Shown here: positions 21,228 through 48,068 of the stretch, piece after piece
Position numbering within the stretch: the stretch's first letter is position 1
How the letters are laid out: each line of letters opens with the position of its first letter
Source: a virus
IMG/VR virus record: IMGVR_UViG_3300025684_000012
Reading direction: 5' to 3' (one strand)
Length of the DNA: 64,000 nt
Translations under genes and position numbers: made by a program
Notes under the pieces: model-generated
The model's database searches: none
Told to the model about the DNA's origin: nothing
Seen by the model: the letters and a program-made list of their open reading frames with translations, nothing else

Positions 21228-21253
21228 TACCGAGGCTTAGTTATAGGTGTCTG

Positions 21254-21261
21254 TATTTATA
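21254..21261 (-). promoter_or_regulatory. Late promoter TATAAATA
   Basis: Exact consensus in an intergenic gap. Confidence 0.75.
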
Positions 21262-21298
21262 TGTTTATTAGACCGCAGGAAGTGTCAATAGGTCCACT

Positions 21299-23581: not shown

Positions 23582-23684
23582 GCTTGGCTACTCCCATTCA
23601 TTCATCCCTTATATAAAGGGCAAGTATACTATAATAAACTTCAATTCGTATATGACGATTTACTCAAAGTTTATCAATTATTAT

Positions 23685-25085: not shown

Positions 25086-25354
25086 CAGTATTGTCCACCG
25101 TTAATTTCTTGTTTGTCTAATAGTTTCTGTGCATGCCACGAGTTATCACTTTCATGATACACGAGAACATCTCCATCTAATGCGTCACTAGCCTGTACAT
25201 CATTCAACCCGCCTAATGTGCCATTATCAGCGGTGACGCGACGCACAGGCTTACCAACGGTTACTCTTTTGACCTTGGTTGCAGTACCAGTACCTACCCC
25301 CGACACATAATGTGTACTGTCAGGATTAGATGGGGATATTTTCCTTATAGGCAT
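25085..25354 (-). CDS. Small structural protein
   Basis: LGGLNDV...DGDVLVY....W module and C-terminal INGGQY; coupled to its neighbours. Confidence 0.65.
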   Translation of the reverse strand: MPIRKISPSNPDSTHYVSGVGTGTATKVKRVTVGKPVRRVTADNGTLGGLNDVQASDALDGDVLVYHESDNSWHAQKLLDKQEINGGQY

Positions 25355-25358
25355 AATA

Positions 25359-25718
25359 CTACCTCGTTACAGACGGAGATACCTTTATCTTTCCCTCTAG
25401 GATACGTTCTACGATCGTGTAGCCATCACTATCTACATAGTTGAGCTCAACGTCATAGACGTATCTACCGCGGGTAGATAGTGTATCTGTTTGTTCGTTC
25501 GTGAGACTTAGTACTACGACACCATCTGTCGCAGGTTGTGCAACAATGGCCGTGAAGTCAATAGTTTTATCAGTATCGCTGTTATAAGACTTTTTCATCT
25601 TAGCTTGTACTGAATAACCAGTGAGGTTTTTGGTGGAACCGTCAAGTTCTACGAGCTCGAGTTGGAACGCAACATCGGATCCTTGAGCTATAGTGAAATC
25701 TTCGTAAGTGGTTGACAT
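25359..25718 (-). CDS. Virion structural protein (BppU N-terminal-like fibre adaptor)
   Basis: IAQGSD...NLTGYSVQAKMKK...G.V.LSLT..QT..L..GRYVYDVE....RILEGKI.VSPSVT. Confidence 0.75.
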   Translation of the reverse strand: MSTTYEDFTIAQGSDVAFQLELVELDGSTKNLTGYSVQAKMKKSYNSDTDKTIDFTAIVAQPATDGVVVLSLTNEQTDTLSTRGRYVYDVELNYVDSDGYTIVERILEGKIKVSPSVTR

Positions 25719-27796: not shown

Positions 27797-30700
27797 TTAG
27801 GCAACCCTTACATACAACGTATACGTCTCAACAATGTTGAACGTTGGCTGGATAGTCATACCAACATAGTTACCAACAAACGCTCGTGAGTAGTTGCCCA
27901 CGAAGTCTCGCGAGTAGTTTCCAGCATAGCCTCTGGCGTATGCCCCAACGTATTCACCTACATATGTTGATACACGGTTACGGGCATAATCATCGGTATA
28001 CGATGATGTACGCGCACGAGAGTATGCGCTAACGCGGGTGCGTGAGAATACATTAGTGTAGTTGCCTGTATATTCACCAGCAAATGCACGACTGTAGTTG
28101 CCTACATAATCCCCAACGAATCCGCGCGAATAGTTTCCGATATACTCGCCAGCAAAGCCACGAGAATAGTTTCCAGCGAATCCGCGAGTATAGTTACCAG
28201 AGTACTCACCAACAAATGTTCTGTTGTATGTGCCGGAGTATTCACCAACAAATGTTCTGCTGTAGTTACCTGCGTATTCACCAGCAAATGCACGACTGTA
28301 GTTGCCAACGAAGTCGCCGGTGTAGTTGCCCACATAATTACCTGTGTATTCACCAGCAAACGATCTAGCATAATTTCCAGTAAATGCTCTCGCATAATTG
28401 CCAACATAGTTACCTACGTATTCACCAGCAAACGATCTAGCATAGTTACCTGCGAAGGTACGAGCATAGTTGCCAATGAAGTTACCAGCAAAGTTCGTTA
28501 CACGATCTCTAGCGTAAGCACTAGAACGAGTACGAGCATAAGCTGAAACGCGAGTACGAACGTACGCGGAGTATCGAGTGCGCGTACTTGTACGTGTAAA
28601 GTCGCCAACGTAGTCTGTAATACGAGTACGAGCATATGCGCTACTACGGGTACGAACGCTTGTACGAACCGAAGTTCTAGCATACTCTCCAACAAAGTCA
28701 CCGACGAAATCCCCGATGTACGAGCTAACGCGAGTATAATACCCAGTACGTGTATAGTCCGCAACATAAGCTCTAGCGTAGTTGCCTACGAAGTTTCCTG
28801 CATAAACCAACGTACGAGCATAGTTGCCAACGAAGTCGCCAGTATAAGTTAACGTACGAGCATAATTACCTACGAAGTCGCCAGTATAAATTAACGTACG
28901 AGCATAGTTGCCAGTGTATGTTACTGCCCTAGTATAGTTTCCTACATAGCTAGCTGCGCGAACTCGAGTATACGCTGGATAGTAAGCACGATCACGAGAA
29001 TACGCTGGATAGTAAGCACGATCACGAGAATACGCTGGATAGTAAGCACGATCGCGTGAGTAACCTAGGACGGTGGTATAGTTAGTAGCTCTCGTCCTAG
29101 TATAATCATATGTTACATTACGAGCATAGTTCCCAGCGTATGTTACTGTGCGCGTGTATATTACAGTTCGCGAATAATATGTAGTGGCGGTTCGTGTGTA
29201 TATCTGAGGATCACCAGGATCTGGCCCTATTGGTGGACTTGGAGGACCAACGTAGTATGATGTTCCAGTTCTAGAGTACGACAGATTTCGCGAATAATAC
29301 CCTATAGCAGCCCTATTACGGGTATAAGCTACTGCACCAGTTCTAGTATAGTTACCTACGAAGTCACCAGTGTAAGTCAATGAACGAGCGTAGTTACCGG
29401 TATAGTAATATACACGAGCATAGTTGCCAGTATAGTATGCTACACGAGCATAGTTGCCAGTATAGTATGCTGTACGGGCATAGTCACCAGTGTAGCTCGC
29501 AGCTCGGGTACGCGTATAATCTAGCGTAGCGGCACGAGCGCGCGTGTATGATGGCGATATTGCATAGTCTGTAATACGTGTACGTGAATACGATGGCGAT
29601 ATTACATAGTTTGTAATACGTGTACGTGAATACGATGGACTCGTGGTGAAGTTGGTTACACGGTCACGGGTATAGGCAGTTGAATAGTTACCAGTATACG
29701 CTAGTACTCGAGTAAAGGTTAATGTCGCAGCGTCATCGCGCGTATAGTTCGTTACCCTGGTACGAGCATAGTTGCCTACGAAGTCGCCAACATAATCGCC
29801 GACAAACCCACGTGCATAGTTACCTACGAAGTCGCCAGTATATGTTGTGGCGTAATTACCGACAAAGTTACCAGCATAGCCGCGCGCGTAGTTACCAGCA
29901 AACCCGCGAGAGTAATCTCCTACGAAGTTGCGGCTATAGTTACCAATAAAGTTACCAGCAAAGTCGGTTACACGGTCACGGGCATACGCCGATGTGCGCG
30001 CGCGAGAGTATGCAGAGACCCGAGCACGGGAATACGTGCCAGTGTAGTCAGCAGAGTAAGTTGAAACGCGAGCTCGTGTATAAACAGATGCGCGTGCACG
30101 CGTGTATACGCCTGTGTAGTCGGCAGAAAATGCCGTGAGACGAGTACGAGCATATGTACTTACGCGATTGCGTGAATACGTGCCTGCATAGGCTGAGACG
30201 CGGTTACGCGAATATGTGCCAGCATAAGACGACACCCTATTACGAGCATACGTACCAGCATAGGCTGAGACTCGGTTACGCGAATATGTACTTACACGAT
30301 TGCGTGAATATGTGCCAGCGTAAGTCGAAATACGATTACGGGCATAGTTATCAGAATAAGCTGAAGAGCGTAAACGAGAATATACTCCTACGAAATCGCC
30401 AGTATATTCCCCTACAAAACCTCGTGAATAATTGCCGGCGAAGTCGCGGCTATAGTTACCAGCGTAATTGCCGACAAATACTTGGCTTGTAGTGCGTGAA
30501 TATGTACCACTAAAGGTAGACACTCTGTTACGCGTGTAGGCTGAAACTCGGGTCTGTACGTAGCTCGAGTTGCGGCTGCGCGTATAATCGATTTGAGCTG
30601 TCGTTAGCTTGGTGTTTACGGCTGTACCAACAACCTTCCACGTACCACCACCGATGGGTGCGCCTTGAGCTGAAGAAAGTAATTGATAGCTACCAATACT

Positions 30701-31366
30701 ACCAACTGACGATCTCAATGTCTTGATACGCTGACCCAACACGTCTTGGATCTCAGCATCAGTCATCTCTTGGAAGCCACCAAAGTTCGAGCCGTCGTAT
30801 CGTACGCGAACGGGACGAACAGCTCCAACGGCCGTCATTGAGTTACGAATATAGATGTGATAGTTTGTAGATACCCCATCCCCACGCGTGTCAGTGAAGA
30901 CGTTCGCTATATGGATAGAGTAATCTGATCCAGGTGAAGATGCTGCCAATCGATAGGTACCGATATAGTCATTCTGGACCATGTTACCGAGTACACGATT
31001 AGCTAAGTTGGATAAGTCCGCGTCTACCATTTCGTAGAAACCGGGATTAGGATCTTGGGCGTAGTAACCTACAGGAATGTTTTGGCCGCTTTCAGTTGCT
31101 GGTCCCGCTACCTGACGAAGGGTCGTAGTAGTTGAACCAGAAGTGATTTGGCTGGCAGGGTGAGTTCCGGGGCTCTGGTTGAAGTATGTATCAACATAAG
31201 AACCGACAGCAACTCCCGTTGGGCTAAGCGTTAGTGAACCAACATCAGTTGGGTTTAGTAATGCTTGTCCTACTGCATACGCCAGATAATTTTCTTCTAA
31301 CGGCGTAAATTCCTTCAGGTCACCATCTGAATTCAGTATTTTTAATGGGATACTAGATGCTGACAC
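27797..31366 (-). CDS. Tyr/Arg/Gly-rich self-complementary repeat protein (predicted giant beta-hairpin filament)
   Basis: 1189 aa, GTG start; globular N-terminal ~255 aa, then 4-residue-periodic YxRx / xGNY / RxRVS units mirrored about the Pro-rich turn GPPSPPIGPDPGDP. Confidence 0.85.
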   Translation of the reverse strand: MSASSIPLKILNSDGDLKEFTPLEENYLAYAVGQALLNPTDVGSLTLSPTGVAVGSYVDTYFNQSPGTHPASQITSGSTTTTLRQVAGPATESGQNIPVGYYAQDPNPGFYEMVDADLSNLANRVLGNMVQNDYIGTYRLAASSPGSDYSIHIANVFTDTRGDGVSTNYHIYIRNSMTAVGAVRPVRVRYDGSNFGGFQEMTDAEIQDVLGQRIKTLRSSVGSIGSYQLLSSAQGAPIGGGTWKVVGTAVNTKLTTAQIDYTRSRNSSYVQTRVSAYTRNRVSTFSGTYSRTTSQVFVGNYAGNYSRDFAGNYSRGFVGEYTGDFVGVYSRLRSSAYSDNYARNRISTYAGTYSRNRVSTYSRNRVSAYAGTYARNRVSSYAGTYSRNRVSAYAGTYSRNRVSTYARTRLTAFSADYTGVYTRARASVYTRARVSTYSADYTGTYSRARVSAYSRARTSAYARDRVTDFAGNFIGNYSRNFVGDYSRGFAGNYARGYAGNFVGNYATTYTGDFVGNYARGFVGDYVGDFVGNYARTRVTNYTRDDAATLTFTRVLAYTGNYSTAYTRDRVTNFTTSPSYSRTRITNYVISPSYSRTRITDYAISPSYTRARAATLDYTRTRAASYTGDYARTAYYTGNYARVAYYTGNYARVYYYTGNYARSLTYTGDFVGNYTRTGAVAYTRNRAAIGYYSRNLSYSRTGTSYYVGPPSPPIGPDPGDPQIYTRTATTYYSRTVIYTRTVTYAGNYARNVTYDYTRTRATNYTTVLGYSRDRAYYPAYSRDRAYYPAYSRDRAYYPAYTRVRAASYVGNYTRAVTYTGNYARTLIYTGDFVGNYARTLTYTGDFVGNYARTLVYAGNFVGNYARAYVADYTRTGYYTRVSSYIGDFVGDFVGEYARTSVRTSVRTRSSAYARTRITDYVGDFTRTSTRTRYSAYVRTRVSAYARTRSSAYARDRVTNFAGNFIGNYARTFAGNYARSFAGEYVGNYVGNYARAFTGNYARSFAGEYTGNYVGNYTGDFVGNYSRAFAGEYAGNYSRTFVGEYSGTYNRTFVGEYSGNYTRGFAGNYSRGFAGEYIGNYSRGFVGDYVGNYSRAFAGEYTGNYTNVFSRTRVSAYSRARTSSYTDDYARNRVSTYVGEYVGAYARGYAGNYSRDFVGNYSRAFVGNYVGMTIQPTFNIVETYTLYVRVA
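27860..30586 (-). repeat. Degenerate coding repeat array (12/24-bp base period with 30-bp and 42-bp tandem blocks)
   Basis: Tandem blocks YSRDRAYYPA x3, YTGNYARxxY x3-4, SPSYSRTRITNYxx x3 and YTGDFVGNYARTLx x3. Confidence 0.9.
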
Positions 31367-32065: not shown

Positions 32066-32782
32066 TTAAATTTGCTCAGCAATCCATATAGGACCATAAT
32101 TATCATAATAATACGTTGGTTCGAACCCCTGACCACCCGCTGGATCAGGTTCATCCTTATCCATATCTAGGTGGTATGCATTTTGAGTACCAGGCTGTGG
32201 GATTATGCAGGCTTTACTTCCTAAGGAATCCCAGTAAGTCCAGTCAGCGCTGATATATTTTGAGGCGTCCGTACTAATTGGATCGGAGCCATATCCATTA
32301 AGAGCCCTAGCTGGAATAATAGAATTAACGCGTAATCCAGCATTGAATTTAATTTTTCTAGAATCGAAGGCAGACTCCCCACCAGCCGTCAACACTTGTA
32401 AACCATACTCGCCAACCGCGGTTACATTTGTTACATCTTCCATAATAATATACTGGACGGATCTTAGGGCATACGCTTGATTCCAAGCAAACCCATCACG
32501 GTTATATGCTGCGTAGTCGGATGATACAAATTTCATAACTGGGCCACCGAGGGTACCGGCTAAAATAGCTACCTCGTCGTCTACTCCCTGTACATAGTTT
32601 CCGTTAGCGTCGGTATGGGGTCTAATGAACACTAATCTGTTTTTACCGTAACCGGAAACAGGTACCGACCACCCAGACCCCATGGCGGTGATAACATAGT
32701 TGACAAGCCCTCGCTCGGTATCAAGTTGGATAATCTCGTTACCGCCACCATCAAATGATTTAACAACTAATCCGTAACTCAT
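32066..32782 (-). CDS. Fibre-tip accessory protein
   Basis: Two YGL.V...G motifs (MSYGLVVKS, EYGLQVLTAGGESAFDSR), typical of proteins encoded after gpJ-like fibres. Confidence 0.6.
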   Translation of the reverse strand: MSYGLVVKSFDGGGNEIIQLDTERGLVNYVITAMGSGWSVPVSGYGKNRLVFIRPHTDANGNYVQGVDDEVAILAGTLGGPVMKFVSSDYAAYNRDGFAWNQAYALRSVQYIIMEDVTNVTAVGEYGLQVLTAGGESAFDSRKIKFNAGLRVNSIIPARALNGYGSDPISTDASKYISADWTYWDSLGSKACIIPQPGTQNAYHLDMDKDEPDPAGGQGFEPTYYYDNYGPIWIAEQI

Positions 32783-33633
32783 TATGCTATCCTCGCTGCT
32801 ATTATAACTGGAGCTGATGCGGTAGAGCGATCGTTTATCACTGTCAGTGTGTTGCCTGATACAGAATAGCTTATAGAAGTATACCTGAAACCAAACGCTA
32901 CAATAACTTTGGTAGGATCCCCTACATCTTCTATTGTAATATTTGTCGTTGAGTATGGTCCAACCGAAACACTACCGTAAAATACTAGGTTTAATACTCT
33001 AGTTGTAGGGTTGATAATTTCAGTTACACCATCTGGTCCATATACCACCAGACCATATTCAGCATCCGATGCTGGCGCACCAGTATACGTAGGAGGAGCT
33101 CCAGTACCACCAGAAATTGTACTAACACGAGTCGTAGTTCTTGTATAGTCGCCTACAGAAGTTCTGGTGAATGTTCCACTAAATGTGTTCGTAGAGCTTC
33201 TAGTATATAATCCGCTGTACCCCCTGGAATACACTCCTAGGAATGATCGGGCATAGTTACCGGCAAATAACCGCGAATATCCCCCAGCTGATGATACTGT
33301 ATAAAACCCTTGGTACGCTCTTGTGTAATACCCAATATAGTTTCTCGAGTAATACCCAATTGACTCTACGGTTCTAGATCTACTAAACGATCTAACATAA
33401 TTACCGGTGAAGTTTCCAATGAAATCGCCGACGAATGACCTAGAATAAAACGCAGTACTTTCGTTACCATCCTCAAAATTCGCATATGATATTAGTCGAG
33501 TACTAGCAGTACCTGCTCTAGTCCTAGTATAATCTACGACTCTTGGAGTACCTGAAAAGTCAGCTGTAGTGCCTCCTGTTCGGGTGCTAATTCTAGTAAA
33601 TGTGGAGGTTCTTGTATAATAGGATTCAGGCAT
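32782..33633 (-). CDS. Y/R/G repeat strand (residues 1-175) fused to a YGL-type fibre-tip domain
   Basis: N-terminal YSR/GNY repeats and C-terminal EYGLVVYGPDG; TAATG-coupled on both sides. Confidence 0.75.
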   Translation of the reverse strand: MPESYYTRTSTFTRISTRTGGTTADFSGTPRVVDYTRTRAGTASTRLISYANFEDGNESTAFYSRSFVGDFIGNFTGNYVRSFSRSRTVESIGYYSRNYIGYYTRAYQGFYTVSSAGGYSRLFAGNYARSFLGVYSRGYSGLYTRSSTNTFSGTFTRTSVGDYTRTTTRVSTISGGTGAPPTYTGAPASDAEYGLVVYGPDGVTEIINPTTRVLNLVFYGSVSVGPYSTTNITIEDVGDPTKVIVAFGFRYTSISYSVSGNTLTVINDRSTASAPVIIAARIA

Positions 33634-34169
33634 TACGGCTCAATCCCCCCATTAGGAGCGGTGAATAATATAGATGTTATTGTACCAGTACGCGATATAG
33701 TCCTACTGTAGGTCCCACCATAATAAGCCGTATACACCGCAGCAAAATATCCTTGACTACCCACTCTAGTGTAAAATGGGGTAAAGTATTGATATCTGGA
33801 AAATGAACGAACGAAAAGTCGAGAGCTCGTTACCGACGTTCGTGTTCTAGTAAAATTTTGTGTTCTGTCTCTGGTGTATGCAGAGACTCTAGAAACGGTG
33901 AACGTTCTAGTATAAGTCCCAGCAAATGATTGGGAATAATTACCCGCAAACGCTCTACTATAATACCCAGAAAAAGTTCTAACAAATGTTCCGGAATAAG
34001 TGCTTTGTCTATTCCTGGTATAGGTTGACGGGCGCAGTCGCGTAAAGGTTGCAGAAAATGTATTTGTTGTATCGGAGCTATACGAAGATACACGATTTCG
34101 AGTGAACGACGTTACGTAGTTCCCTGCGAATGATAATGTCCTTGTATACGATACTGTAAAATCAGCCAT
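33633..34169 (-). CDS. Y/R/G repeat protein, complementary to the next gene product
   Basis: 178 aa made largely of YTRxRxS and FAGNY units; AGGA RBS. Confidence 0.75.
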   Translation of the reverse strand: MADFTVSYTRTLSFAGNYVTSFTRNRVSSYSSDTTNTFSATFTRLRPSTYTRNRQSTYSGTFVRTFSGYYSRAFAGNYSQSFAGTYTRTFTVSRVSAYTRDRTQNFTRTRTSVTSSRLFVRSFSRYQYFTPFYTRVGSQGYFAAVYTAYYGGTYSRTISRTGTITSILFTAPNGGIEP

Positions 34170-35978: not shown

Positions 35979-38900
35979 TTAAACAGCCAACGCTATTGTT
36001 CTGAAGTCGCTGATGATAGGAATCTTCGAAGAGTTGGTTGATTGCATTACAACCCTAGCTTGGAATATATTGAATTGATCATCAGTGTCTATGGTGTATG
36101 AATATTCTCTAAACACGTTTCGACTCTCGTCACTCGGTATGTTATTATCAGCGTCAACCAACACCCACTCAGATACCTCTAGTGAAGATTCGTCTGCTGC
36201 TGTTTTAACATAAACCTCAAACTCGACTGTACTTGGCCGATGGGCCGAAAATAGTATTTTAAGCCCTACAGCTGACTCATCTAGGATTACAGGTGTAGTA
36301 ATATGCTGAGCAGCCGTTCCCATATCAATAACGTTCTCTAGTGTCATTACTGATACCCGTTGAAGATCAATCAAGGGAGATACTTTAGTATCAGTGGTTG
36401 ATAGAGTGATGTTGAAGGTCATGTCATCAGGCGATGCTATAATCGTCGGTCTATCGTTCAGGTTGAGATCGTTGATGAATACCTGCTTTGAGCCCACAGA
36501 TGAATATGCACCATTATACAGAGGGTTGTTACGGTTTCCTCCAAACGAGGCTCCAGATGTTTGAGTTACTGTTGCCGTTATACGTGTTCCGTTAGGAGTG
36601 ATGTTGGCAATGTTAGGAGTCATCTCGTCAATCATGATCTGCTCACTTGCTACAACTGAAGAGCCTCCTCCTAGTACAGAAGCGGTGGCTACTGTCCCCA
36701 CGTTAATCTGATATCCTTCCCAAGACACACTTGCTATTAGATGGGTACTATTTAAACTTGCTGCAGGGATTCCTCCAATAGTACCCTGGACGCCACTAAT
36801 CTCAACTTCGTCATTTGCGTTGAATCCATGACCCTGATGGGCAATGTTTACTAACGCACTATTCTTCTCAACTGAGATAGGATTTGGACCTAATGTAATC
36901 TTAGGTACTTCTGTGTTAGATAACACTACATTGGCAGTTGTATCAAACTCAGCGCGATATAACTCAAACATTAAGTCTCTCGTTTGATCGGGTGTCCAAG
37001 TAGAACCATTCTGTGATAAGAATAGTGAGCCAAGAGTTGGCTGCTTATCCACTCTACCTTCTCGCTGATTCGGCCCAAGGATAAACTCGTAGGTTTCAGC
37101 AACGTACGCGTTGTATTCAACCGATTCGGCTAACAGTACTATGGCATACTCTTCGCCTGGGGTTAAATACACAGGTTCATCGAAATCAATATCTGTACCA
37201 CCAAACAATCGAACATCTGCTATATCAGTATCGGGCGTTAATGGCACCACGTTGATATTCGAAGGGGATACAAACTTATTTGATCCAGGGACGATTCGTG
37301 TAGTTGGTATGCCATTTTCTACGGGTCGGATTTGTACTTGTAACGGAATCGCGCTATCTTTACTCTCCATGAATACTTTAACATGGGTTAGGAACAACCC
37401 ATTAGGATTCTCGACTTGATCGATGAAGAACGTTTGAGCGAGAGGATCTATGCGCTCAGAGATAGTTTCTACGATTCGTGTACTGCGAATGGTGCGTTGT
37501 ACCGCATCAATACGACCGACCGATTCATAGTTAGCTCTCGATGATGAAATAGCCATATCGTCATCGTTGATGCTAACGTCAAGTAATTTAAATTCTTGTT
37601 GACCAGTACGGAATGACATACTGGGGGTGTTTGGTACAAAGAATGACCCAATCAATACACCGTTGTCGTCTGTTACTAGCTCTGTAGACCCATTCGGGTG
37701 TCCGCTAGCGCTAGCAAACTCACTTCCGGACTCTCTTGGGTTATCGGAGAAAAGTCTAAATACATTTTCTTGACGCACCCATGGCTGCACAGATTGGTTA
37801 CCGAAGAAGGCAAACATTCTAGTTTTTGGTCTCAGTCCTTCGACCCGGAAATAAACTTCACGAGATCTCATGAACGGCACTACTTCAACGTCAACAACCT
37901 GCTCTCCTAAAAACTCTTGGATAGTGGTTTCTACGATTCGCGATGTAACCCTACCACCGCGTCCGCCACCAGTTCTATCGGTGCTGGTTCGACGTACGTT
38001 GGATTGCATAATCTCGGGCAGCTGACGTACTTCTACCCACTCATCCGTAGCTGGAGATAATGTCATGTGACCGGTTTGCGTAATTACAGCGAACGGATTG
38101 ATATTCATTCTGCCAGTGGCCAGTAGCTGACTAGCTAGTAACGTGTTAACATGAGGCAGTACTGCAACATCCCCTTTCTTAACAGCCGAGCTTTGCCTCA
38201 TAGCGAGACGCACAGAGTTCTCTCTAAACGACGGCATCAACTCTCCACTTGTTGGTTCAACTGAAGCGCGATAATCGGGGTTATTCAAATCACAGAAGTT
38301 TAGTGATCTGAAGTTGTCAGCTATGAATCCTGATTTGGTACGGTTATTACCGAGCTCGTCCAATACCGCCAGTGTTGCTGTATCTGCTTCGAGTAAGCTA
38401 AGTGTGGTAAGCTCAAACAAGGTATCGATTCGGTCTTCCAACTTTGCAATGTCTTGCATAGTGAACCGTTTGTGCGGAATCCTAGTAGTAGATAAATCAT
38501 TCTTATCTGCTGTATAAGCATTCAGATCTATCTGGAATAATGATAGCGAACCAACCGGCACTTGAGGTGGACGGGGATCTAGCGCCGCCTCACCTTCAAT
38601 TATTTGTAGGCGTCCAGTACCAAGTCTACCCCTCGAATCTAGAGTATTAGCTACCAGAAGGTCTATACGCGGTAAGTAGTAAGTAGCGTCGACGCTGATA
38701 ATACTTTTGTTTCTTGGTAGTGTGTTGATGCTACTCGACTGAATACCATCCGCTAAAATTACCGGACGGAAGTCTAATACATCAGTCAGTTGTATTGTAT
38801 CACCAGAAGATGTTTTATATGACGGTACGTTACTGTAAATTGTAGGGTACGACTCGACACTGAAATAGTCCCCGTCCCCATGGAAGTAGTGCTGAAAAAT

Positions 38901-41315
38901 AACAGTATACTGAGAACCTGCTTCTGCAGTTAATCCAGATTTCAGTCTAAGTTTAATTGGTCCGTAATAATTATCACGCTGACCGCCATCAAACTCAAAT
39001 GACCCAGTAACGTCGTTACCTGAAGCATCAACGATCTGAACTAATTTGGTGCCATCAGCATAATCTAACGTGATAGCGGAGAGATCTAGGCTACTGGCCA
39101 ACGCTTGACGAGATACGGCATAATAGGTATAATTCTCGCCCGTAGTGCTTCCCTCTCCTTGAGTATAGTAACCGGTGTAGGTACTTGCTCTAGATCGGGT
39201 ATATGAGGAGCTACGCGTATAGTTTCCGACGAATGTACTTGCCCGGCCTGGACCAGAATAAGTGTTAGTTGCCATTCGGGTGAAAGGTAGCTCTAGAAAG
39301 TCAGGCTCACCTGGTCTAAGTTCAATCTCTAAAAATCTAGAGTATGATTCTTCTTCCACACGCGTAAAACCCGGCGCAGCGTAAATGCTGGCTCTGACCC
39401 TAGTAAAGTCTAGTGGTCGGACATAGTTACCTACGAAGTCTACATAATTTAGATTGGTAGATGTTGGAGCCGTAAAGGTAGTTGTAAACGTGGGCGTTTG
39501 AGTGCTTCCGCGAGTATACTGGAATCCTTCAGCATTAAGGGTAGTGATATCTGATGCACCACTAGCTGTAGTAATCAGCTCACCGTTCCACACAATACTT
39601 GCGGCTCCAGTTCTGTTTTCCACTCGCCACATTGTAGTACCCTGTATAAATGTTGGGCCTTGTACAGGGGCTACGCCGTCACCAATAGTAACATTTTCTG
39701 TTATAGTGACTGGGATTTTAGATCTAACCCTGGGGTTAGATGATTCAAAGTAATATGTGACTATGTATGGAGTCGAAGGCGTGAGCCCAGTAATTTTATT
39801 TGATGTTGTACTCCACCCAGTGGCAAGACCTACTCCAGTCTGGAATATTACGGGAAGATATGACCCATTAATAGTATCGGAAATTAGTATTTCACCAGAG
39901 CTGTTTGCCACAGCTTCGATTGTACGCTGTGAGGTAAAATTAGTATCAACAATACCTTGAGGACGTGAGTGAGGAAGTGGAAACAGTAACGTGTTGTCGA
40001 TTCCGCCAAGTAGGCCAGGAACTTTTAATGTGCACGAACCGCTCACTCCAGTGATAGTTGTTACGTCTCTGAAGTTAGACCCTACAGGCATTTGTATATT
40101 GAAAAGATAAAGCCTATATTCACCGCCTACGTTTTCAATAGCACGAACGTTTGCAGTCCCCCCATTACCCAAGCTAACTTGATCGAATGAGGTTAACTCG
40201 CTCAATCCGGTACTTTGGGTAGGGTCGATGATCACGTAATTACCGTATTGGGCTATTACGCTATCATTGTTTACGGTACCGGTCGCACGAGCGCGCCCGA
40301 CATCTAAATTAGTAGTACCGAAGTCTAATCGGTAGCCATCGACATAAGCAGTTCCTGGGGTGACCTCTAGATTTAGAGTTAGATCATCCTTGTCCTGCAT
40401 TATTGTTTTGAATTCGCGGGCTACATAATCCCCCGATTCTTCTTTGGTACGAGTAGCGAGTAAGTCGTTAATGATATTATAATCATCTTTAGCGTCAACT
40501 TCACGCGTGATTACCCCATTGACAATCCGAGCTACAAACACAAAGTTTTCTTCCTCTGTGAGAGCGTCGCGGGTAGTGGGAGTCAATTCAATCTTGTATC
40601 GGTGAGCACCTGGGGCTGCGGTGTTTGGAAAAGCACCCTGATTATCGTATAGAGTAACGTCTTCTCCTTCCGTAATAACACTTTCCACTACTTGGAATCC
40701 AAAGTCCACGGTTGGCTTGGAATTATACTTGTCGATGTAAGTTGATTGCTGAGGAGAGTGAACGAAATGGCCAGCAACGAAGAAAACTCCTTCGTTGACG
40801 GATATACTAGTTCCAGTACCCACAGCAGGAACGTCTCCATCTAAAGCTACGGTAAGAGGAAAGGTTGTAGCTCCTACGGGCGTTAATATCTCGCTTGGGT
40901 TGACGCGTGCAGGAACACTCGTGTCAACTACTGCAGAGGTGTCGACGTATCTAACATATAATGTTTGAGGATCTACATCAGTAGCTTCATGGTACTCTTC
41001 TACCATGAACTTGATTCCCTGCGCATTTTGGTACTGTTGTCCTACAATATTCTCGGGCACCAGAGTACCAGCTTGCAGCCGGATATACTCTTTAGAGTTG
41101 TCGATTATTGAGCCACCAGCTTTAACTGTGGCTCCTTCACGAAAGATGTTACGTCCAAACCGCGCTATCTCTTCATGGAGTATAGTCTGCAGCTCATTTA
41201 GTTCGCGAGCTTGTAGTGCTTTACCTGAATTGAATAAAACACGATGATAACCGCTTTCTTTATCATAAAAGTCACGATATGTTTCTTTAAATGTCTTACT
41301 GGTGAAATTGCTCAT
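35979..41315 (-). CDS. Large baseplate-associated virion protein (DUF4815/VrlC-like)
   Basis: YHRVLFNSGKALQARELNELQ, APGAHRYKI, RT.EESGDY, LDFRP, RFTMQDIAKLEDRI, PFMRSR and DPLAQTF. Confidence 0.88.
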   Translation of the reverse strand: MSNFTSKTFKETYRDFYDKESGYHRVLFNSGKALQARELNELQTILHEEIARFGRNIFREGATVKAGGSIIDNSKEYIRLQAGTLVPENIVGQQYQNAQGIKFMVEEYHEATDVDPQTLYVRYVDTSAVVDTSVPARVNPSEILTPVGATTFPLTVALDGDVPAVGTGTSISVNEGVFFVAGHFVHSPQQSTYIDKYNSKPTVDFGFQVVESVITEGEDVTLYDNQGAFPNTAAPGAHRYKIELTPTTRDALTEEENFVFVARIVNGVITREVDAKDDYNIINDLLATRTKEESGDYVAREFKTIMQDKDDLTLNLEVTPGTAYVDGYRLDFGTTNLDVGRARATGTVNNDSVIAQYGNYVIIDPTQSTGLSELTSFDQVSLGNGGTANVRAIENVGGEYRLYLFNIQMPVGSNFRDVTTITGVSGSCTLKVPGLLGGIDNTLLFPLPHSRPQGIVDTNFTSQRTIEAVANSSGEILISDTINGSYLPVIFQTGVGLATGWSTTSNKITGLTPSTPYIVTYYFESSNPRVRSKIPVTITENVTIGDGVAPVQGPTFIQGTTMWRVENRTGAASIVWNGELITTASGASDITTLNAEGFQYTRGSTQTPTFTTTFTAPTSTNLNYVDFVGNYVRPLDFTRVRASIYAAPGFTRVEEESYSRFLEIELRPGEPDFLELPFTRMATNTYSGPGRASTFVGNYTRSSSYTRSRASTYTGYYTQGEGSTTGENYTYYAVSRQALASSLDLSAITLDYADGTKLVQIVDASGNDVTGSFEFDGGQRDNYYGPIKLRLKSGLTAEAGSQYTVIFQHYFHGDGDYFSVESYPTIYSNVPSYKTSSGDTIQLTDVLDFRPVILADGIQSSSINTLPRNKSIISVDATYYLPRIDLLVANTLDSRGRLGTGRLQIIEGEAALDPRPPQVPVGSLSLFQIDLNAYTADKNDLSTTRIPHKRFTMQDIAKLEDRIDTLFELTTLSLLEADTATLAVLDELGNNRTKSGFIADNFRSLNFCDLNNPDYRASVEPTSGELMPSFRENSVRLAMRQSSAVKKGDVAVLPHVNTLLASQLLATGRMNINPFAVITQTGHMTLSPATDEWVEVRQLPEIMQSNVRRTSTDRTGGGRGGRVTSRIVETTIQEFLGEQVVDVEVVPFMRSREVYFRVEGLRPKTRMFAFFGNQSVQPWVRQENVFRLFSDNPRESGSEFASASGHPNGSTELVTDDNGVLIGSFFVPNTPSMSFRTGQQEFKLLDVSINDDDMAISSSRANYESVGRIDAVQRTIRSTRIVETISERIDPLAQTFFIDQVENPNGLFLTHVKVFMESKDSAIPLQVQIRPVENGIPTTRIVPGSNKFVSPSNINVVPLTPDTDIADVRLFGGTDIDFDEPVYLTPGEEYAIVLLAESVEYNAYVAETYEFILGPNQREGRVDKQPTLGSLFLSQNGSTWTPDQTRDLMFELYRAEFDTTANVVLSNTEVPKITLGPNPISVEKNSALVNIAHQGHGFNANDEVEISGVQGTIGGIPAASLNSTHLIASVSWEGYQINVGTVATASVLGGGSSVVASEQIMIDEMTPNIANITPNGTRITATVTQTSGASFGGNRNNPLYNGAYSSVGSKQVFINDLNLNDRPTIIASPDDMTFNITLSTTDTKVSPLIDLQRVSVMTLENVIDMGTAAQHITTPVILDESAVGLKILFSAHRPSTVEFEVYVKTAADESSLEVSEWVLVDADNNIPSDESRNVFREYSYTIDTDDQFNIFQARVVMQSTNSSKIPIISDFRTIALAV

Positions 41316-41323
41316 CGGTTATC

Positions 41324-42649
41324 CTAAATTGTAATCACTATTTTAATGTCTTCTTGCTGTTCAGCATCACGTCTAATACGGTATCTATTCTCAATATAAA
41401 GTACATCTCCAGAGGTTCGATCGATACCATTTTTAACCTGCTGATCGCTGATCACTCCAGTGACAACTATACCTTCTTGCGAAACACTTTCGCCAGTATT
41501 GAAGCTAACAAATCCGGTTGATTCATTTTGATGATAGTGAACCATGTTATCCTGGGATTCATTTACATATGCCACAGCACCCGTTTGCATTCCTGTAATC
41601 TTTTTACCGGGCACAAAGGGTGAGGTATCAGCTAGCTGTAATGAAGGCAACACTTTAGAAGCGGTACCCGCGAATGGTATACCTGATGGAGTAAGAGGAT
41701 TTTTTATCAATCCCATCTGACGGAATGTATTTTCTACAATAAAGGATCCACCCTCTTCGCCATTAGGTTTAATATTGAACATTATAGAGCTGGTCTTCAT
41801 ATCATTGATAGGATCAAAGCCAAGTCCATTAATGTCCGTAATCACAGCACGTAATTTACCATCAACCCCATCGCCAGTAATCACGAGAGTTGCGTGCGTA
41901 TAGCTGTGACCATAACTAGTCATTTCAACTTTAGTGATTGTGCCGTTATTAATGTAAGCTGTAGCTGTCGCTCCAGTCCCATCACCAAGAACCTCTATAG
42001 AAGGGGCATTAGTGAAGCCGGATCCAGCATCAACAATCTCTGCGCGAATAATTTGTCCTGCGACCGCCGCTTCCTTAACCTGGAACTGTAAGTCTTCGAT
42101 TGAGTCGCCGCCAGCCAGTGACTCTTCTGGAAGATCTACAGGGATCCAATTTGAAGATAGATGTTGATAGATATTTTCAGGTGTTAGCGAGAATAGGAAC
42201 TTCCACACATAACCATCACCTGTTTTAAAGTGTTGGGTATGATCGACACCAAGAGCACCGTAGTTAGGCTCTATTGTTGAAACGTTGATCTCGCCAGTTT
42301 CAGTCATGCCTGTTTCTAGACAGAGGTATACTTCCTTAGCGTCGTTTAAAACGTAAGATGGGTATGGGCTATTTCCTGAATCACTCCAACCTGAGTAGAC
42401 CATTCCCGACGACCAGTTATACCGTGCGGCCGCAAAAGATGCTCCCTCAACCTTCTTGATAGATTGTAGGTTATTGCGAAACTCTTTTTCCTCCAATATA
42501 CTATCTACAGGGTTGATCACCGTATCTGTATCGTTAAAGACGTCAGACTTACCAATACCAATATAGTATTCGTTAGTTGAAGCGATAACATCATTGAGCA
42601 GGTCTCTTGCGAGATTCCTGCTCATGGTTTGTCGAATTATAGCTGGCAT
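41324..42649 (-). CDS. gp8: Baseplate wedge subunit
   Basis: RYNWSSG..Y, VYLCL, GDGYVWKFLF and SGDVLYIENR..I.R...QQEDIKIVI. Confidence 0.9.
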   Translation of the reverse strand: MPAIIRQTMSRNLARDLLNDVIASTNEYYIGIGKSDVFNDTDTVINPVDSILEEKEFRNNLQSIKKVEGASFAAARYNWSSGMVYSGWSDSGNSPYPSYVLNDAKEVYLCLETGMTETGEINVSTIEPNYGALGVDHTQHFKTGDGYVWKFLFSLTPENIYQHLSSNWIPVDLPEESLAGGDSIEDLQFQVKEAAVAGQIIRAEIVDAGSGFTNAPSIEVLGDGTGATATAYINNGTITKVEMTSYGHSYTHATLVITGDGVDGKLRAVITDINGLGFDPINDMKTSSIMFNIKPNGEEGGSFIVENTFRQMGLIKNPLTPSGIPFAGTASKVLPSLQLADTSPFVPGKKITGMQTGAVAYVNESQDNMVHYHQNESTGFVSFNTGESVSQEGIVVTGVISDQQVKNGIDRTSGDVLYIENRYRIRRDAEQQEDIKIVITI

Positions 42650-42695: not shown

Positions 42696-45600
42696 TTAGA
42701 TATCTCCAAGTTTTACTCGGACGTTTCCTGACGCGTCAAAAATGGTGATAGTCGTGTTGTTAATCTCCATGCGTTGACCGCTAGTAGATGACTTAACGTC
42801 AATCTGACCGGTCACTGTGGCATTGGATAGTTTAACTACACCTCCTGCTACAGTGAATGGGGAAACATCCGAAGTCCCGTTGAAGATTTGGAATTTATCA
42901 GCAACAACCTTAAATGCTGAACCGCCTGTACCATTATATAGCTCTACACCAGCAACGCGACCGTTGTTATCCAAATCCACAAAGTATCGCTGTTCGACTT
43001 CCGTTGCAGTTCCTTCAACAGCCGTCACCCTATTGGTCAATCCTGTCACAGCTGTGGCAGACGCCTTACCGTCAACGGCTGAGGATAAAGTTGTAATAGA
43101 GCTCTGAACAGTATCAATTTCACCTTCAGCAGTACTCACTCTGTTGGTGAGTGCATTCAAAGCAGTCGTTGAAGCCTTTCCGCTTACTGTACTCGTCAGC
43201 GAAGTTACGCTAGTTTGTAATGTGTCTAGCAACCCTGCTTCTGAGTTAACTTGGTTCTGTAGACTATCCAAAGCAGTCGTTGATGCTTTGGTTCCTACAT
43301 TAGTTGTCAACGAGGTAATATCACTTTGAACTGCGGTGATATCACCTTCAACTTCCGTTACTCTGTTGGTTAATGTGTTAACTGACGCCGTTGACGCTTT
43401 GGTTCCTATGGTGGTCGTTAAAGAGGTAATGTCACTCTGAACTGCGGTGATATCGCCCTCGACTTCTGTTACTCTATTGGTTAGCGTGTTGACTGATGCT
43501 GTTGATGCTTTGGTTCCTACCGTAGTGGTCAAGGATGTAATATCTGATTGAGCGGTATCGATTTCACCTTCAGCAGTACTTACTCGAGTAGTCAACGCAT
43601 TTAACGCGGTGGTCGAAGCCTTTCCGTCAACGGTGCTAGTTAGGTTTGTAATACTCTCTTGTGTAGCATCCAACCGATCACTGTCAGCATCAACACGATC
43701 TGATAGCGTAGTAACCGATGCTGTCGATGCTTTACCATCGACTGTTGTACCTAAAGCAGTTACGTTTGTATTGATAGTAGAGATGCTACCTTCAGTAGAA
43801 GTAACCCGGGTTGTTAAGTTATTGAGAGCGGTTGTAGACGCCTTACCATTGACCGTAGTGGTCAAGGAGGTCAGGTTATCTTGTACCGTATCAATCTCAC
43901 CTTCGGTAGCAGTAACACGCGTCGTTAAACCGTTCAGAGCACTCGTAGAAGCCTTGCCATCAACGGTTGTGCTAAGTGTGGTGACGTCCGATTGAACTGC
44001 TGTGATGTCCGTTTCTGTAGCTGTCACGCGCGTCGTCAATGCGTTCACGGCCGTAGTACTTGCTTTACTGTTATTCAGTCCAGTAACGCTTGTTTCGAGC
44101 GAAGTGATGTCCGATTGAGCTGCTGAGATATCCGTCTCAGTTGCATCCACTCGTGTCTCTAATGCTGACACAGCAGTTGTTGTAGCCTTGCTGCCATCGA
44201 GACCCGTAACACTAGTCTGTAATGTTGTTATATCAGACTGGGCCGCTGAGATATCAGCTTCATTAGCGGTTACACGTGTACTTAATCCAGAGATTGCTGT
44301 TGCTTGTGTTGAAAGTGTTCCCTGGGCATTGGATACGTCAGTTTCAAGTGTAGTGATATCCGACTGAGCTGTTGTAATAGATCCTTCAGCTGCCGTCACT
44401 CGAGTTGTTAAGTTATTGACCGATGTTGTTGACGCTTTACCTGAGTTGAGAGTATTGACGCTTGATTGCAGCGAAGTGACATCCGACTGAACCGATACCA
44501 ACCCATCGCTATCCAAATCCACACGAGATGTTAATGATGCAAGGGCTGTTTGAGTTGTTGTCAGAGATCCATCAATACTAGCTAGCTCAGTCTCTAGCTC
44601 GGTTACATCGGATGATATTGAGGTGATGCTACCTTCGGTAGAAGTAACGCGCGAGGTTAAATCGGACAATGATGAAGCGTTCGCCGTAATAGCAGTCCAA
44701 TTCGAATCTATACCCGACAAGTCAACCGCATTAATAGCCGCTTCCAATTGAGTGAGTTTGGACGCTTGGGTAGTAACGGTACCTTCGGTAGAAGTAACGC
44801 GTGTATCTAAACTTGTTAACGCGTCAGCGTTAGCCGCTATACCCGAAAGATCTAATCCAGCAAGATCTGCTGAGATTTGAGTTACATCTGACGCAACAGC
44901 ACTGATGTCAGTTCCTTGTTGAGTAACTGTGGTCTGTAAAGTGCTAATAGCGTCCGCATTGGCCGTAATACCGCTGAGGTCAATATTGCCCAAGTCTGCA
45001 GACAATTGAGTGACTTCACTGGCAACACTTGTCAGACGATCAGAGTCTTGGTTAACCTTAGTGGTTAGTGAAGAAATAGCATTAGCGTTTGATGTTATAC
45101 CCGATAAGTCGATATTATCCAGCTCGGCTGATAGTGTAGTAACTTCTTGCGAAAGGGATGTGATACCGCTATCATTAGATGTTACACTAGTCTCTAGGGT
45201 AGTGATGGCGTCAGCTAAAGCAACTAATGAAGCTCCTGTACTACTGTCGAGTTGTTGCAATCCAGATGTAAGTGTAACCACGTCTGACGACAGTGCCACA
45301 AGAGAATCACTATCTTGGTCTACTCTTGACGTTAATTCAGCTAGAGTTGTAGCATTCGCCTGAATACCTGAAACGTCTAATGCATCAAACTCAGCTTCCA
45401 GTTGAGTAACTGATTGCGATATGGTGCTAATTGAGTTTATATTGCTTTGTACAGTAGTCGACAGTCCTTGGATAGCGGTAGCGTTTGCTGCTATACCGCT
45501 GAGATCGATTGACCCCAAATCAGCCTCAAGTCGCGTGACGTCTGATGCAACGGCTACTAAATCACTATCGGTTGCAGTGATTCGATTGCTCAATATATTC

Positions 45601-48068
45601 TGAGCGCTGGTATTGGCATTAACGTTTGCTTGGGTGTCAATAAGCGATGCAGAGAGAGCTGTCACATCTTGAGATAGTATTACCAATGAATCGCTATCTT
45701 GATCTACACGAGTTTCTAAAGTGGATAATGCCCCACCAACAGCTTGCAATATAGCATCAGAATCAATACCGTCGCTTAACGCCGCTTCTAGAGAAGTAAC
45801 TCTTGTAGCTACAGTAGATAACGATTCGCTATCCTGATCTACGCGAGTTGTTAGAGAATCTATGGCCGAAGCGTTTGCTGCAATGCCGGATAGATCCAAA
45901 GATCCTAGATCGGCAGACAGCTGGGTAACCTCTGACGAGACTACACTGAGGGTATCACTATCAGCATCTACCCGAGCAACGAGTGATGAAATAGCGTCAG
46001 CATTTGCTGTAATGCCCGACAGGTCGATCCCTTGAAGATCGGCAGATAGCTGGGTAACCTCTGAGGCTATAATAGACACGTCGCTATCTGTAGCCGTGAT
46101 CTGAGTTTGTAAATTATTTATTGCTGCAGCAGTAGCATTGACCGCTTCACCAGCAACGTCGATATTGTTTAATTGGGTCTGAAGTGACGTTATGTCAGCA
46201 GCATTAGATACGATACTAGATTCTGTTGAGGTCACTCGCGTTGTTAAAGAGTTAACAGCCGTTACGCTTGCTGCGCGACCATCCAGGTCATTTAAATCAA
46301 TAGCTAGCTGGGTAACATCTTGCGATAATGCTGTTAATCCATCGCTAGTTTGGACTACAGACGCCTCCAATAGATTGATAGCATTAGCATTCAATGCAAT
46401 TCCGGATACGTCTATGTCGGCTAGACTGGCTTCTAGAGAAGTGATATCCGATGCTAGCGATATAACACTAGAATCGTTTGCGTCAATACGGGCAGACAGC
46501 GATTGTTCCGCAGTTGCGATTAAGTCTGTTACATATCCTGAATCCAATCCCGCATTTGCTAGTGCTGCTTCAAGCGTGGTGATATCCTGAGCTAGTATAG
46601 CAATCGCGCTATCACCCTGCTCTATCAGTGTGCGTAGTTCGTCACGAGCAGTAGCAGTACCGGATATCAAAAAGTCTGAATCAATAGCATTGACTACAGT
46701 CTCAAGTTGTGTTAAGCGAGAAGCTTCTGACGTGAGACGATCGCTGTCTAGGTTGACGCGTGCTTGCAGTGACTGCAAAGCATCAGCTGTGGATGTTAGC
46801 GTGCTGTCTGCATTAGCTAATCCTACCGTCAGCTCACTCAGGTCAATTGCCAATACTTCAACGTTACTATCGGTAGCAGTTATCTGTGTTTGTAGGTTAT
46901 TGATTGCTGATGATGTAGCGGCGATAGCTTGGCCAGAAATATCTAATGAAGATAAGTCCGTTTGAAGCTCAGTTACTTGTTGCGATAACGCTTGCAGGGC
47001 TGCGCTATCGTCATCGATACGCGTCGTAAGCTCTTGTGTAGCGGTAGCTACAGCTGAGGTAATATCTCCAGCTAAACTAACTTCAAGATCCGTGATTTCT
47101 TGCGCTAGTACTTGTACGGCACTATCAGTAAGTGTTATTTGACTAGTTAATGTGTTCTCCACATTGGAAGTCGCACTAACGATATCATTGCTAACCTGCG
47201 TCTGTAGCAGAGTAACTTGTTCAGCTAATGCTTGCAACGAATCGCTATCTAGATCAACACGAGCCTCCAGACCAGCGTATAATTGTGAGCTGGCTTGTAG
47301 TACATCACTGTCTATGTTAAGCGATTGAAGATCAGCTGATAGCTGCGTCACTTGAGAGGCTAGACTAGCCAACGAGTCACTGTCGAGATTAATGCGCGAA
47401 GTTAATGCAGTAATTGCTGTATTACTAGCTGATAGGATATAATCCGAATCTATTAGATCTAATGCTGCGCCAAGAGCCACTATATCTTGCGATAAAGTGT
47501 TTACAGCGGAGTCTGATGCAACAACCTGAGATGATAGAATACTGAAATTGTTAGTAAGCGCTTGGAGTAAATCGCTGTCGGCTGATAAACGAGCGTTGAG
47601 CTCAATAACCGCAAGAGCCACTGCCGCTTGAACGTCCGAGTCACTGACGCTCGTTTCAGCATTCTCTAAAGTCGTAACGGCAGCTGCTATGGCGTCCAGT
47701 TCTTGTTGGTTCAATTGTAGAGTAGACGCTAACTGAGCTACTTGAAGAGCAGTGACCGCGATATCGCTATCAGTGCTGCTAGCAGCTCCCTGTAGTTGCA
47801 CTAGAATAGAGTCGTGTTGGGTTATTCGATCACCCAATTGAACAACGCTGGGATCCCCAGCTATATTGACTGTCCCCGGAGTGGCCAGTTGATTATTAAC
47901 TGTGCTGAGTATTAGAGAAGATAGCGCTTCAGGGGTCAGACCATCGCCCAGCGAGACTAAACTATATAATTCAGCAAAATTATCGTTGATTTTAACAGTA
48001 GCCTGACGTAGAGTATCACCACTTCCGTCGTTAGCTCCTTGCCCGGCATTTAGAATGAGTCTAGCCAT
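42696..48068 (-). CDS. Long fibre: gp9/gp10-type baseplate anchor, ~1600-aa coiled coil, gpJ/DUF1983-like tip
   Basis: N-terminal GQGANDGSGDTLRQA..KINDNFAELY; heptad repeats; C-terminal LDNNGRVAGV...ADKFQI...PFTV...IFDASGNVRVKLG. Confidence 0.8.
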   Translation of the reverse strand: MARLILNAGQGANDGSGDTLRQATVKINDNFAELYSLVSLGDGLTPEALSSLILSTVNNQLATPGTVNIAGDPSVVQLGDRITQHDSILVQLQGAASSTDSDIAVTALQVAQLASTLQLNQQELDAIAAAVTTLENAETSVSDSDVQAAVALAVIELNARLSADSDLLQALTNNFSILSSQVVASDSAVNTLSQDIVALGAALDLIDSDYILSASNTAITALTSRINLDSDSLASLASQVTQLSADLQSLNIDSDVLQASSQLYAGLEARVDLDSDSLQALAEQVTLLQTQVSNDIVSATSNVENTLTSQITLTDSAVQVLAQEITDLEVSLAGDITSAVATATQELTTRIDDDSAALQALSQQVTELQTDLSSLDISGQAIAATSSAINNLQTQITATDSNVEVLAIDLSELTVGLANADSTLTSTADALQSLQARVNLDSDRLTSEASRLTQLETVVNAIDSDFLISGTATARDELRTLIEQGDSAIAILAQDITTLEAALANAGLDSGYVTDLIATAEQSLSARIDANDSSVISLASDITSLEASLADIDVSGIALNANAINLLEASVVQTSDGLTALSQDVTQLAIDLNDLDGRAASVTAVNSLTTRVTSTESSIVSNAADITSLQTQLNNIDVAGEAVNATAAAINNLQTQITATDSDVSIIASEVTQLSADLQGIDLSGITANADAISSLVARVDADSDTLSVVSSEVTQLSADLGSLDLSGIAANASAIDSLTTRVDQDSESLSTVATRVTSLEAALSDGIDSDAILQAVGGALSTLETRVDQDSDSLVILSQDVTALSASLIDTQANVNANTSAQNILSNRITATDSDLVAVASDVTRLEADLGSIDLSGIAANATAIQGLSTTVQSNINSISTISQSVTQLEAEFDALDVSGIQANATTLAELTSRVDQDSDSLVALSSDVVTLTSGLQQLDSSTGASLVALADAITTLETSVTSNDSGITSLSQEVTTLSAELDNIDLSGITSNANAISSLTTKVNQDSDRLTSVASEVTQLSADLGNIDLSGITANADAISTLQTTVTQQGTDISAVASDVTQISADLAGLDLSGIAANADALTSLDTRVTSTEGTVTTQASKLTQLEAAINAVDLSGIDSNWTAITANASSLSDLTSRVTSTEGSITSISSDVTELETELASIDGSLTTTQTALASLTSRVDLDSDGLVSVQSDVTSLQSSVNTLNSGKASTTSVNNLTTRVTAAEGSITTAQSDITTLETDVSNAQGTLSTQATAISGLSTRVTANEADISAAQSDITTLQTSVTGLDGSKATTTAVSALETRVDATETDISAAQSDITSLETSVTGLNNSKASTTAVNALTTRVTATETDITAVQSDVTTLSTTVDGKASTSALNGLTTRVTATEGEIDTVQDNLTSLTTTVNGKASTTALNNLTTRVTSTEGSISTINTNVTALGTTVDGKASTASVTTLSDRVDADSDRLDATQESITNLTSTVDGKASTTALNALTTRVSTAEGEIDTAQSDITSLTTTVGTKASTASVNTLTNRVTEVEGDITAVQSDITSLTTTIGTKASTASVNTLTNRVTEVEGDITAVQSDITSLTTNVGTKASTTALDSLQNQVNSEAGLLDTLQTSVTSLTSTVSGKASTTALNALTNRVSTAEGEIDTVQSSITTLSSAVDGKASATAVTGLTNRVTAVEGTATEVEQRYFVDLDNNGRVAGVELYNGTGGSAFKVVADKFQIFNGTSDVSPFTVAGGVVKLSNATVTGQIDVKSSTSGQRMEINNTTITIFDASGNVRVKLGDI
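43010..44470 (-). repeat. About 37-aa (111-bp) tandem coding repeat KAST.A...LT.RV...EG.I...QS.ITSL
   Basis: About ten imperfect copies visible in the translation. Confidence 0.8.

Follow-up and report, generated by a model that had tools for sequence, protein, structure and literature searches.

A putative fold-back graft from the apex of a giant fibre protein in the baseplate tripod of uncultured marine cyanophages

The 64,000-nucleotide stretch of viral DNA analyzed here (IMG/VR record IMGVR_UViG_3300025684_000012; hereafter referred to as the window) encodes a baseplate protein of the tripod family in which a turn has probably been replaced by a graft from a fibre apex that folds back as a long two-stranded spike (estimated probability roughly 0.6). 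Within one small clade of marine T4-like cyanophages, all uncultured, an excursion of 115-191 residues would have taken the place of a tight turn in a beta module of the tripod protein, and the core of this excursion (amino acids [aa] 627-713 in the window) would be the transplanted apex of a giant fibre protein built from arginine/tyrosine (R/Y) repeats. The chain would run outwards for about 40 residues (about 60 if the Thr-rich stems are included), turn at Pro-Gly-Glu-Pro, and return antiparallel to itself, forming a two-stranded beta ribbon about 12-19 nm long. One face of this ribbon would be zipped by cross-strand Arg-Tyr/Phe pairs, with a matched Pro/Gly kink (AAPG/SGPG) halfway along, at which the ladder switches faces. 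If the protein is trimeric like its homolog in Staphylococcus phage 812, there would be three of these spikes per tripod, and the tip, apparently the fastest-changing part, seems to tolerate enlargement by 60-70 residues.

The minus-strand translation of window positions 39177-39437 yields exactly the 87 residues (aa 627-713) that a preliminary description of the window had quoted as a segment interrupting an otherwise ordinary virion protein. They form part of a 1778-aa open reading frame (ORF; 35979..41315, minus strand) that matches the Pfam family DUF4815 (PF16075; E = 3.2e-55, 188 bits, gathering cutoff 30), PHROG 358 (over aa 12-1493), and, in three collinear stretches, the DUF4815 protein of phage 812 (PDB 9euf; phmmer E = 3.5e-35), with aa 171-360 of the ORF corresponding to chain positions 74-258 and aa 865-1464 to positions 388-950. 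The gene lies directly downstream of the gene of a gp8-like wedge protein (41324..42649, minus strand; Pfam and PHROG matches), and the loci of relatives carry gp25, gp6, and wedge genes upstream of the tripod gene and tail-fibre assembly genes downstream. By its homologies, the ORF is assigned to the tripod (VrlC/DUF4815) baseplate proteins, the family that comprises gp119 of phage 812 (9euf), gp106 of Listeria phage A511, and the "VrlC" of Vi01-like phages and cyanophages. Among cultured phages, C48C1 (Kyanoviridae) comes closest, with 46% identity across the tripod protein, which together with the gene content indicates that the window stems from an uncultured T4-like marine cyanophage. The tripod protein of phage 812 is a trimer present in 12 copies per baseplate (PMC13433997), and the VrlC homolog of A511 has been localized to the baseplate (PMC4621102, PMC11406892); the trimeric state is known only for the homologs of phages 812 and A511 (PMC13433997).

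The window protein is considerably larger than that of phage 812 (1778 vs. 1152 aa). About 505 of its residues stand in place of some 130 in the phage 812 protein, and these include a 66-residue beta module and a 122-residue R/Y excursion. Bracketing by sequence maps the insertion to residues ~258-388 of the phage 812 tripod; a weak structural match (VIA-align; Z 4.3, root-mean-square deviation 4.5, 125 residues aligned) sets aa 441-880 against positions 256-403 of the 9euf chain. In a family alignment of 69 DUF4815/tripod members (A2), the columns of aa 627-713 are occupied by 81-156 residues in eight sequences and by 0-2 residues in the other 61, which corroborates the earlier view of a variable insertion in a DUF4815-like protein and marks the insertion as clade-specific. 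The entire excursion (aa 607-728; 39132..39497, minus strand), which consists of the R/Y hairpin and Thr/Pro-rich stems, comprises 115-191 residues in the eight homologs but is reduced to five in P0010 and to 0-2 in each of the remaining 60. In P0010, the nearest relative without the hairpin, the five residues bridge the strands that flank the excursion in the window protein, and the two ends of the excursion must therefore meet; a chain inserted into a five-residue turn has to return to its starting point.

The module that carries the excursion is itself of limited distribution. Its N-terminal part (aa 541-606; 39498..39695, minus strand), 66 residues long, is found in only nine of the 69 sequences; its C-terminal strand lies in aa 729-749 (39069..39131, minus strand), a stretch that is partly present in all homologs and runs into the conserved LDYADG / GGQRDN core. 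In structural alignments (VIA-align, Z 6-7.5), the module (aa 541-606 and aa 729 onwards, with the signature WRxxNxTG...VW...YTRG) matches small beta-sandwich domains of the Ig-like type from the tail and neck proteins of phages. As judged from the alignment, the hairpin is nested in a separate, earlier insertion, the same site having been elaborated at least twice. Scans of IMG/VR and JGI metagenomes recovered one additional hairpin variant (L009) but no new arm lengths; they also yielded further relatives with 146-148 codons in place of 260 query residues, which must therefore likewise lack the hairpin. A megablast of the region against cultured phages gave no match, and the graft was found in none of the cultured phages in the collection searched; a second, word-based search limited to aa 605-750 returned only the homologs of the first search. 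A recent foreign acquisition was rejected, because there is no GC anomaly and the composition of the insertion matches that of the rest of the gene.

The probable source of the segment is encoded in the same window. When compared with the other ORFs of the window by blastp, the segment finds its best match in the apex of a 1189-aa R/Y-repeat protein (27797..31366), the alignment being collinear across the Pro-rich tip; the same apex (aa 671-761; 29084..29356, minus strand) is the best blastp match of the mini-hairpins and appears to represent the source-type module. The preference is marginal for the window's own copy (39.7 vs. 33.9 bits), whereas the mini-hairpins of P0004 and P0005 score 63-67 bits against this apex and 38-43 bits against other parts of the giant protein in the window. 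The tips of P0004, P0005, and L009 read TRF[GS]PPAGPDPGEP..YSRTVTQYY, and the apex of the giant protein of L005 reads TRFSPPMGPDPGMP..YSRNVTLYY; the tip motif common to the relatives is PPxGPDPGxP followed by YSRxVTxYY, and an alignment of three mini-hairpins with three giant apexes has 13 invariant columns. The giant protein is itself mirrored, about aa 715 within GPDPG, with 81 Arg-aromatic, no Arg-Arg, and six aromatic-aromatic pairs, a score about 7 standard deviations above those of other centers. Motifs of the types [FY]xRxR and GN[YF]xR occur 99 times in the giant protein vs. seven times in the tripod ORF, those quoted all falling within aa 627-713. On the evidence of these alignments, the segment is a transplanted copy of the giant fibre-protein apex.

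The giant apexes of the window, L002, L005, and C48C1 thus have in common with the tripod graft the repeat motifs, the Pro/Gly apex, the Arg-aromatic mirror, and a collinear alignment. They differ from it in arm length (about 445 residues in the giant fibre protein vs. about 40 in the graft) and in context, since the graft sits in a loop of a globular protein, whereas the giant R/Y protein is a free-standing fibre. The kinship bears on two assertions made earlier. The proposal of a portable, length-tunable appendage grafted onto several virion proteins holds with respect to portability (apex homology) and to tip length (81-156 residues) but is shown for only two protein families, the giant fibre and the tripod. 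The claim that an independent locus bears out the pairing rule, by contrast, is not supported, because a segment homologous to the giant apex has inherited the rule.

The R/Y family is wider than the graft, being found in C48C1 and partly in S-RIM2. Because C48C1 has an R/Y protein but lacks the graft, the simplest history is that the apex was transferred once, into the turn of the tripod gene, and that the copies then diverged; a strict co-occurrence of graft and giant fibre was rejected on the same grounds, although all three graft-bearing phages whose downstream region was read also encode a giant R/Y protein with a GPDPG apex. The tip in the window has diverged to the hydrophobic and acidic FLEIEL-RPGEP-DFLELP. 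The drift of this mini-tip, compared with the conservation of the giant apexes, indicates that the mini-tip evolves faster. Concerted evolution of mini-tip and giant apex within a genome was rejected, because the tips differ in the window and in L002 while the giant apexes are conserved.

In phage C48C1, the giant protein (about 3300 aa) is encoded by a gene of about 10 kb (L001:20497-28983; record positions 141011-151054) that is annotated as hypothetical and has at least 196 matches to the R/Y motifs; it shares 43% identity with the 1189-aa protein of the window over 98% of the latter's length, which makes C48C1 a possible laboratory model for the R/Y fibre family. The corresponding gene in L005 (19981-25367) consists of two overlapping ORFs (19981-23340 and 23151-25367), which could be due to a frameshift, to faulty assembly, or to a true splitting of the gene. 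When the aligned mini-hairpins and apexes were used as a profile to search 1.84 billion representatives, four matches emerged, all of them spurious (zinc-finger-like EPDPNDP repeats, or Thr/Ser-rich sequences with almost no Arg). Pfam searches with the R/Y proteins and the enlarged tips of P0008 and P0009 returned nothing, no PDB sequence matched the R/Y protein, and no description of an Arg/Tyr fold-back fibre repeat was found in the literature searched.

The mirror complementarity of the segment about the Gly of RPGEP, as previously asserted, is reproduced in full, with all ten of the listed pairs present (i + j = 86; center at Gly43, corresponding to Gly669). Among all fold centers scanned in aa 600-740, Gly669 is the best, with seven Arg-aromatic pairs (next best, six and five); within the 87-residue segment it joins two Arg-Gly pairs but no Arg-Arg or aromatic-aromatic pairs. 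In 2000 shuffles, each evaluated at its best center, the observed score was reached in 0.2% of cases with full shuffling and in 0.35% with odd and even positions kept separate. Two kinks lie opposite each other in mirror register, AAPG in the outgoing arm (aa 646-649; 39369..39380, minus strand) and SGPG in the returning arm (aa 687-690; 39246..39257, minus strand); there, the Arg-aromatic ladder of each arm shifts from odd- to even-numbered positions. Conservation over the eight homologs is 0.91 and 0.82 on the R/aromatic face of the two arms vs. 0.62 and 0.65 on the other face; this alternation is the period-2 pattern characteristic of beta strands constrained on one face. At pair 13, both partners have changed together in P0008 and P0009 (R-Y to T-S).

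The ends of the segment also form a direct repeat, FVGNYxRxxx[FY]TRxRASxY, in which 12 of 19 residues are identical and whose motif is self-complementary about its ninth residue. A recent duplication of the arms was rejected in view of their DNA identity of 54%; this value, together with the uniform base composition along the gene, implies that the repeat is old and has been maintained.

The structure of the region was predicted with AlphaFold2 (AF2) in two runs (aa 520-780 with nine sequences; aa 380-880 with 69 sequences). The first run places strands at ~632-645, 650-663, 673-686, and 691-704 and the second at 635-641, 652-658, 678-684, and 695-701; both sets are symmetric about aa 668, and both models break the strands at AAPG and SGPG. 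Two strands would thus fall into the outgoing arm (aa 627-666; 39318..39437, minus strand), which begins with FVGNYVR, and two into the returning arm (aa 672-713; 39177..39302, minus strand), which ends with FVGNYTRSSSYTRSRASTY. Between the arms lies the apex turn RPGEP (aa 667-671; 39303..39317, minus strand), which contains the best fold center and corresponds in the alignment to GPDPG[DE]P, the apex of the giant protein. The second run gives predicted local distance difference test (pLDDT) values of 85-97 in the core and 72-88 in the carrier module, which has six strands in aa 541-606; the confidently predicted strands that flank the excursion (598-606 and 729-739, the latter with a pLDDT of ~85) are likewise symmetric about aa 668. 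In all eight homologs, whose lengths range from 81 to 156 residues, the Pro-Gly turn is no more than 2.5 residues away from the midpoint; six of them have arms of 36-42 and 38-42 residues, and the two long ones have arms of 73/69 and 76/75.

The long homologs are P0008 (aa 625-771; encoded by L005:10001-15520) and P0009 (aa 633-788), in which the tip of the hairpin is enlarged by 60-69 residues. The extra stretch is rich in Gly, Ser, and aromatic residues and contains an Asp-box-like TNDGGFNWT as well as a DHPGP motif that again marks the exact midpoint; it could represent a small domain at the tip or, alternatively, a type of sequence that differs from the rest and lengthens the ribbon symmetrically. 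A Foldseek search of the PDB with the model of aa 380-880 gave no match at E <= 0.001, and a wide VIA-align search returned nothing informative for the hairpin itself. The protruding beta-hairpin expected from the preliminary description gains weak support: the strands are symmetric and the turn is at RPGEP in both AF2 runs, but pLDDT values of only 36-53 accompany them, and on these models a hairpin fold of aa 627-713 is plausible.

Several observations weigh against a fold-back spike. The block means of pLDDT in the hairpin are 36-46 with the deep alignment and 51-53 at best in the other run, and values below 50 are also typical of disorder. The pairing of the strands was deduced from the symmetry of their boundaries alone, and the center of symmetry (aa 668) is one residue off the mirror center of the preliminary description (aa 669). 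The self-complementary end repeat by itself accounts for all five outer Arg-aromatic pairs and both outer Arg-Gly pairs, and three of the ten pairs originally listed involve Gly and so follow a looser rule. The inner Arg-aromatic pairs are mostly gone in P0006 and P0007, and the register of P0008 is shifted by one residue. Only nine sequence variants exist in all. The evidence from arm lengths stems from one or two events of lengthening, and these might just as well represent a small domain inserted at the turn. Moreover, an isolated two-stranded ribbon of such length is perhaps unstable without partners.

An alternative fold would be a compact meander of four beta strands, or a small sandwich, with turns at AAPG, RPGEP, and SGPG, in which strand 1 pairs with 2, 2 with 3, and 3 with 4, so that the insertion would form a knob lacking a long 1-4 / 2-3 ribbon. 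The four strands of about 14 residues predicted by AF2 are parted by exactly these three turns, the meander fits the strand list as well as the ribbon does, and for 87 residues a compact domain is physically the more plausible. Nevertheless, the Arg-aromatic complementarity joins strands 1 and 4 (five pairs) and strands 2 and 3, fold centers near AAPG or SGPG are outside the top three for P0002-P0005, and among the short versions only P0006 has such a center, tied with two others. The meander also provides no hydrophobic core, given a composition of R, Y, T, and S, and cannot explain why a giant homolog is mirrored over arms of hundreds of residues about the same apex motif, which renders it rather unlikely.

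Alternatively, the arms may not pair with each other but with R/Y strands of other chains, be it those of neighboring tripod subunits (as a six-stranded needle), the giant fibre, or the R/Y proteins of 178 and 283 aa, in which case the graft would be a docking strand by which these fibres are anchored to the baseplate. The same motif family is present in neighboring ORFs (27797-31366, 32782-33633, and 33633-34169), the giant R/Y protein with a GPDPG apex accompanies the graft wherever the downstream region was read (3/3), and very low pLDDT in a monomer is typical of segments that require a partner. Tripod homologs are trimeric, and the "fiber domain" of phage 812 mediates tripod-tripod and RBP2 contacts (PMC13433997). 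However, C48C1 has a giant R/Y protein without a tripod graft, so the fibre does not need the graft, and a central turn flanked by arms of nearly equal length is what intramolecular pairing predicts; an exclusively intermolecular pairing therefore seems improbable.

A more far-reaching variant regards the mirrored Arg/aromatic ribbon as a self-contained, transferable folding cassette, with a Pro-rich apex that nucleates a zipper of any length, and the tripod copy as a heterotypic socket, the exposed R/Y face of which zips laterally to the arms of the giant fibre or of the 178-aa and 283-aa R/Y proteins. This possibility is quite doubtful, but if true, it would define a new class of fold-back fibres anchored to the baseplate by beta-sheet augmentation, a protein analog of complementary-strand docking. 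Least probable by our estimate is a mirror devoid of structural meaning, that is, a low-complexity flexible linker born of a recombination accident, with the pairs as a by-product of a repeated motif; although pLDDT is mostly below 50 (51-53 at best), the outer pairs follow from the direct repeat, and the inner pairs decay in P0006 and P0007, such a linker is hard to reconcile with the strong period-2 conservation (0.91 vs. 0.62), a match of 12 of 19 residues between arms only 54% identical in DNA (a similarity maintained rather than recent), a composition matching the rest of the gene (indicating an old insertion), the retention of the segment in nine diverged variants, and a shuffle p of about 0.003.

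If the segment indeed folds back as a spike, its function is the most speculative part of the proposal: the spike may act as a rigid spacer or probe, holding out a variable tip towards the cell surface or a neighboring component of the baseplate or fibre. A rigid spike of ~12-19 nm with a variable tip is favored by analogy with tripod complexes, which reorient so as to make contact with the cell wall; in phage 812, the "fiber domain" of the tripods contacts other tripods and RBP2 (PMC13433997). A docking role for the other R/Y proteins of the phage is a live alternative.

Other ORFs of the window also show internal repeats or a possible insertion. In the gp8-like wedge protein (41324-42649, minus strand), an internal stretch of about 70 residues (aa 190-270) matches the repeat domains of several very large "virion structural protein" PHROGs (phrog_701, 2885, and 4406), which suggests an inserted Ig-like decoration domain. 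The 1790-aa ORF that adjoins the gp8-like gene (42696..48068, minus strand) contains a 111-bp tandem repeat with 2.4 copies and 81% match (window 43278-43544), and a 761-aa ORF contains a 54-bp repeat with 2.8 copies (window 13948-14100).

Loop insertions that decorate the baseplate and receptor-binding proteins of phages are common. The tripod insertion described here would differ in being built from a repeat architecture for which no description was found in the literature searched, apparently folded back and zipped by Arg-Tyr/Phe pairs. The tripod copy shows that the fibre apex behaves as a module that can be cut from the fibre gene and maintained in another protein for a long time. A fragment of 90-120 residues would be far easier to handle in tests of the fold-back ribbon than fibres of 1189 to 3300 aa, and the fast-evolving, enlargeable tip on the tripod of these marine cyanophages is a candidate determinant of host contact.

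Among known structures, the proposed hairpin is reminiscent of the needle at the tip of the long tail fibre of phage T4 (gp37), which is said to have been described by Bartual et al. in 2010 as an intertwined trimer with iron ions bound by His-x-His motifs. In both cases, the chain would run to the tip and back in long antiparallel strands with little hydrophobic core; however, aa 627-713 contain no histidine and employ Arg and Tyr/Phe where the needle uses His-x-His, which sets the segment apart from the gp37 type. Cross-strand cation-pi and aromatic pairs are known to stabilize designed beta-hairpins, such as the tryptophan zippers, but we know of no natural Arg-aromatic ladder of at least 40 residues per arm. 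The designed hairpins share the proposed principle of facing residues on antiparallel strands, with Arg packed on Tyr/Phe, but comprise only 12-20 residues, whereas each arm of the proposed ladder would measure at least 40.

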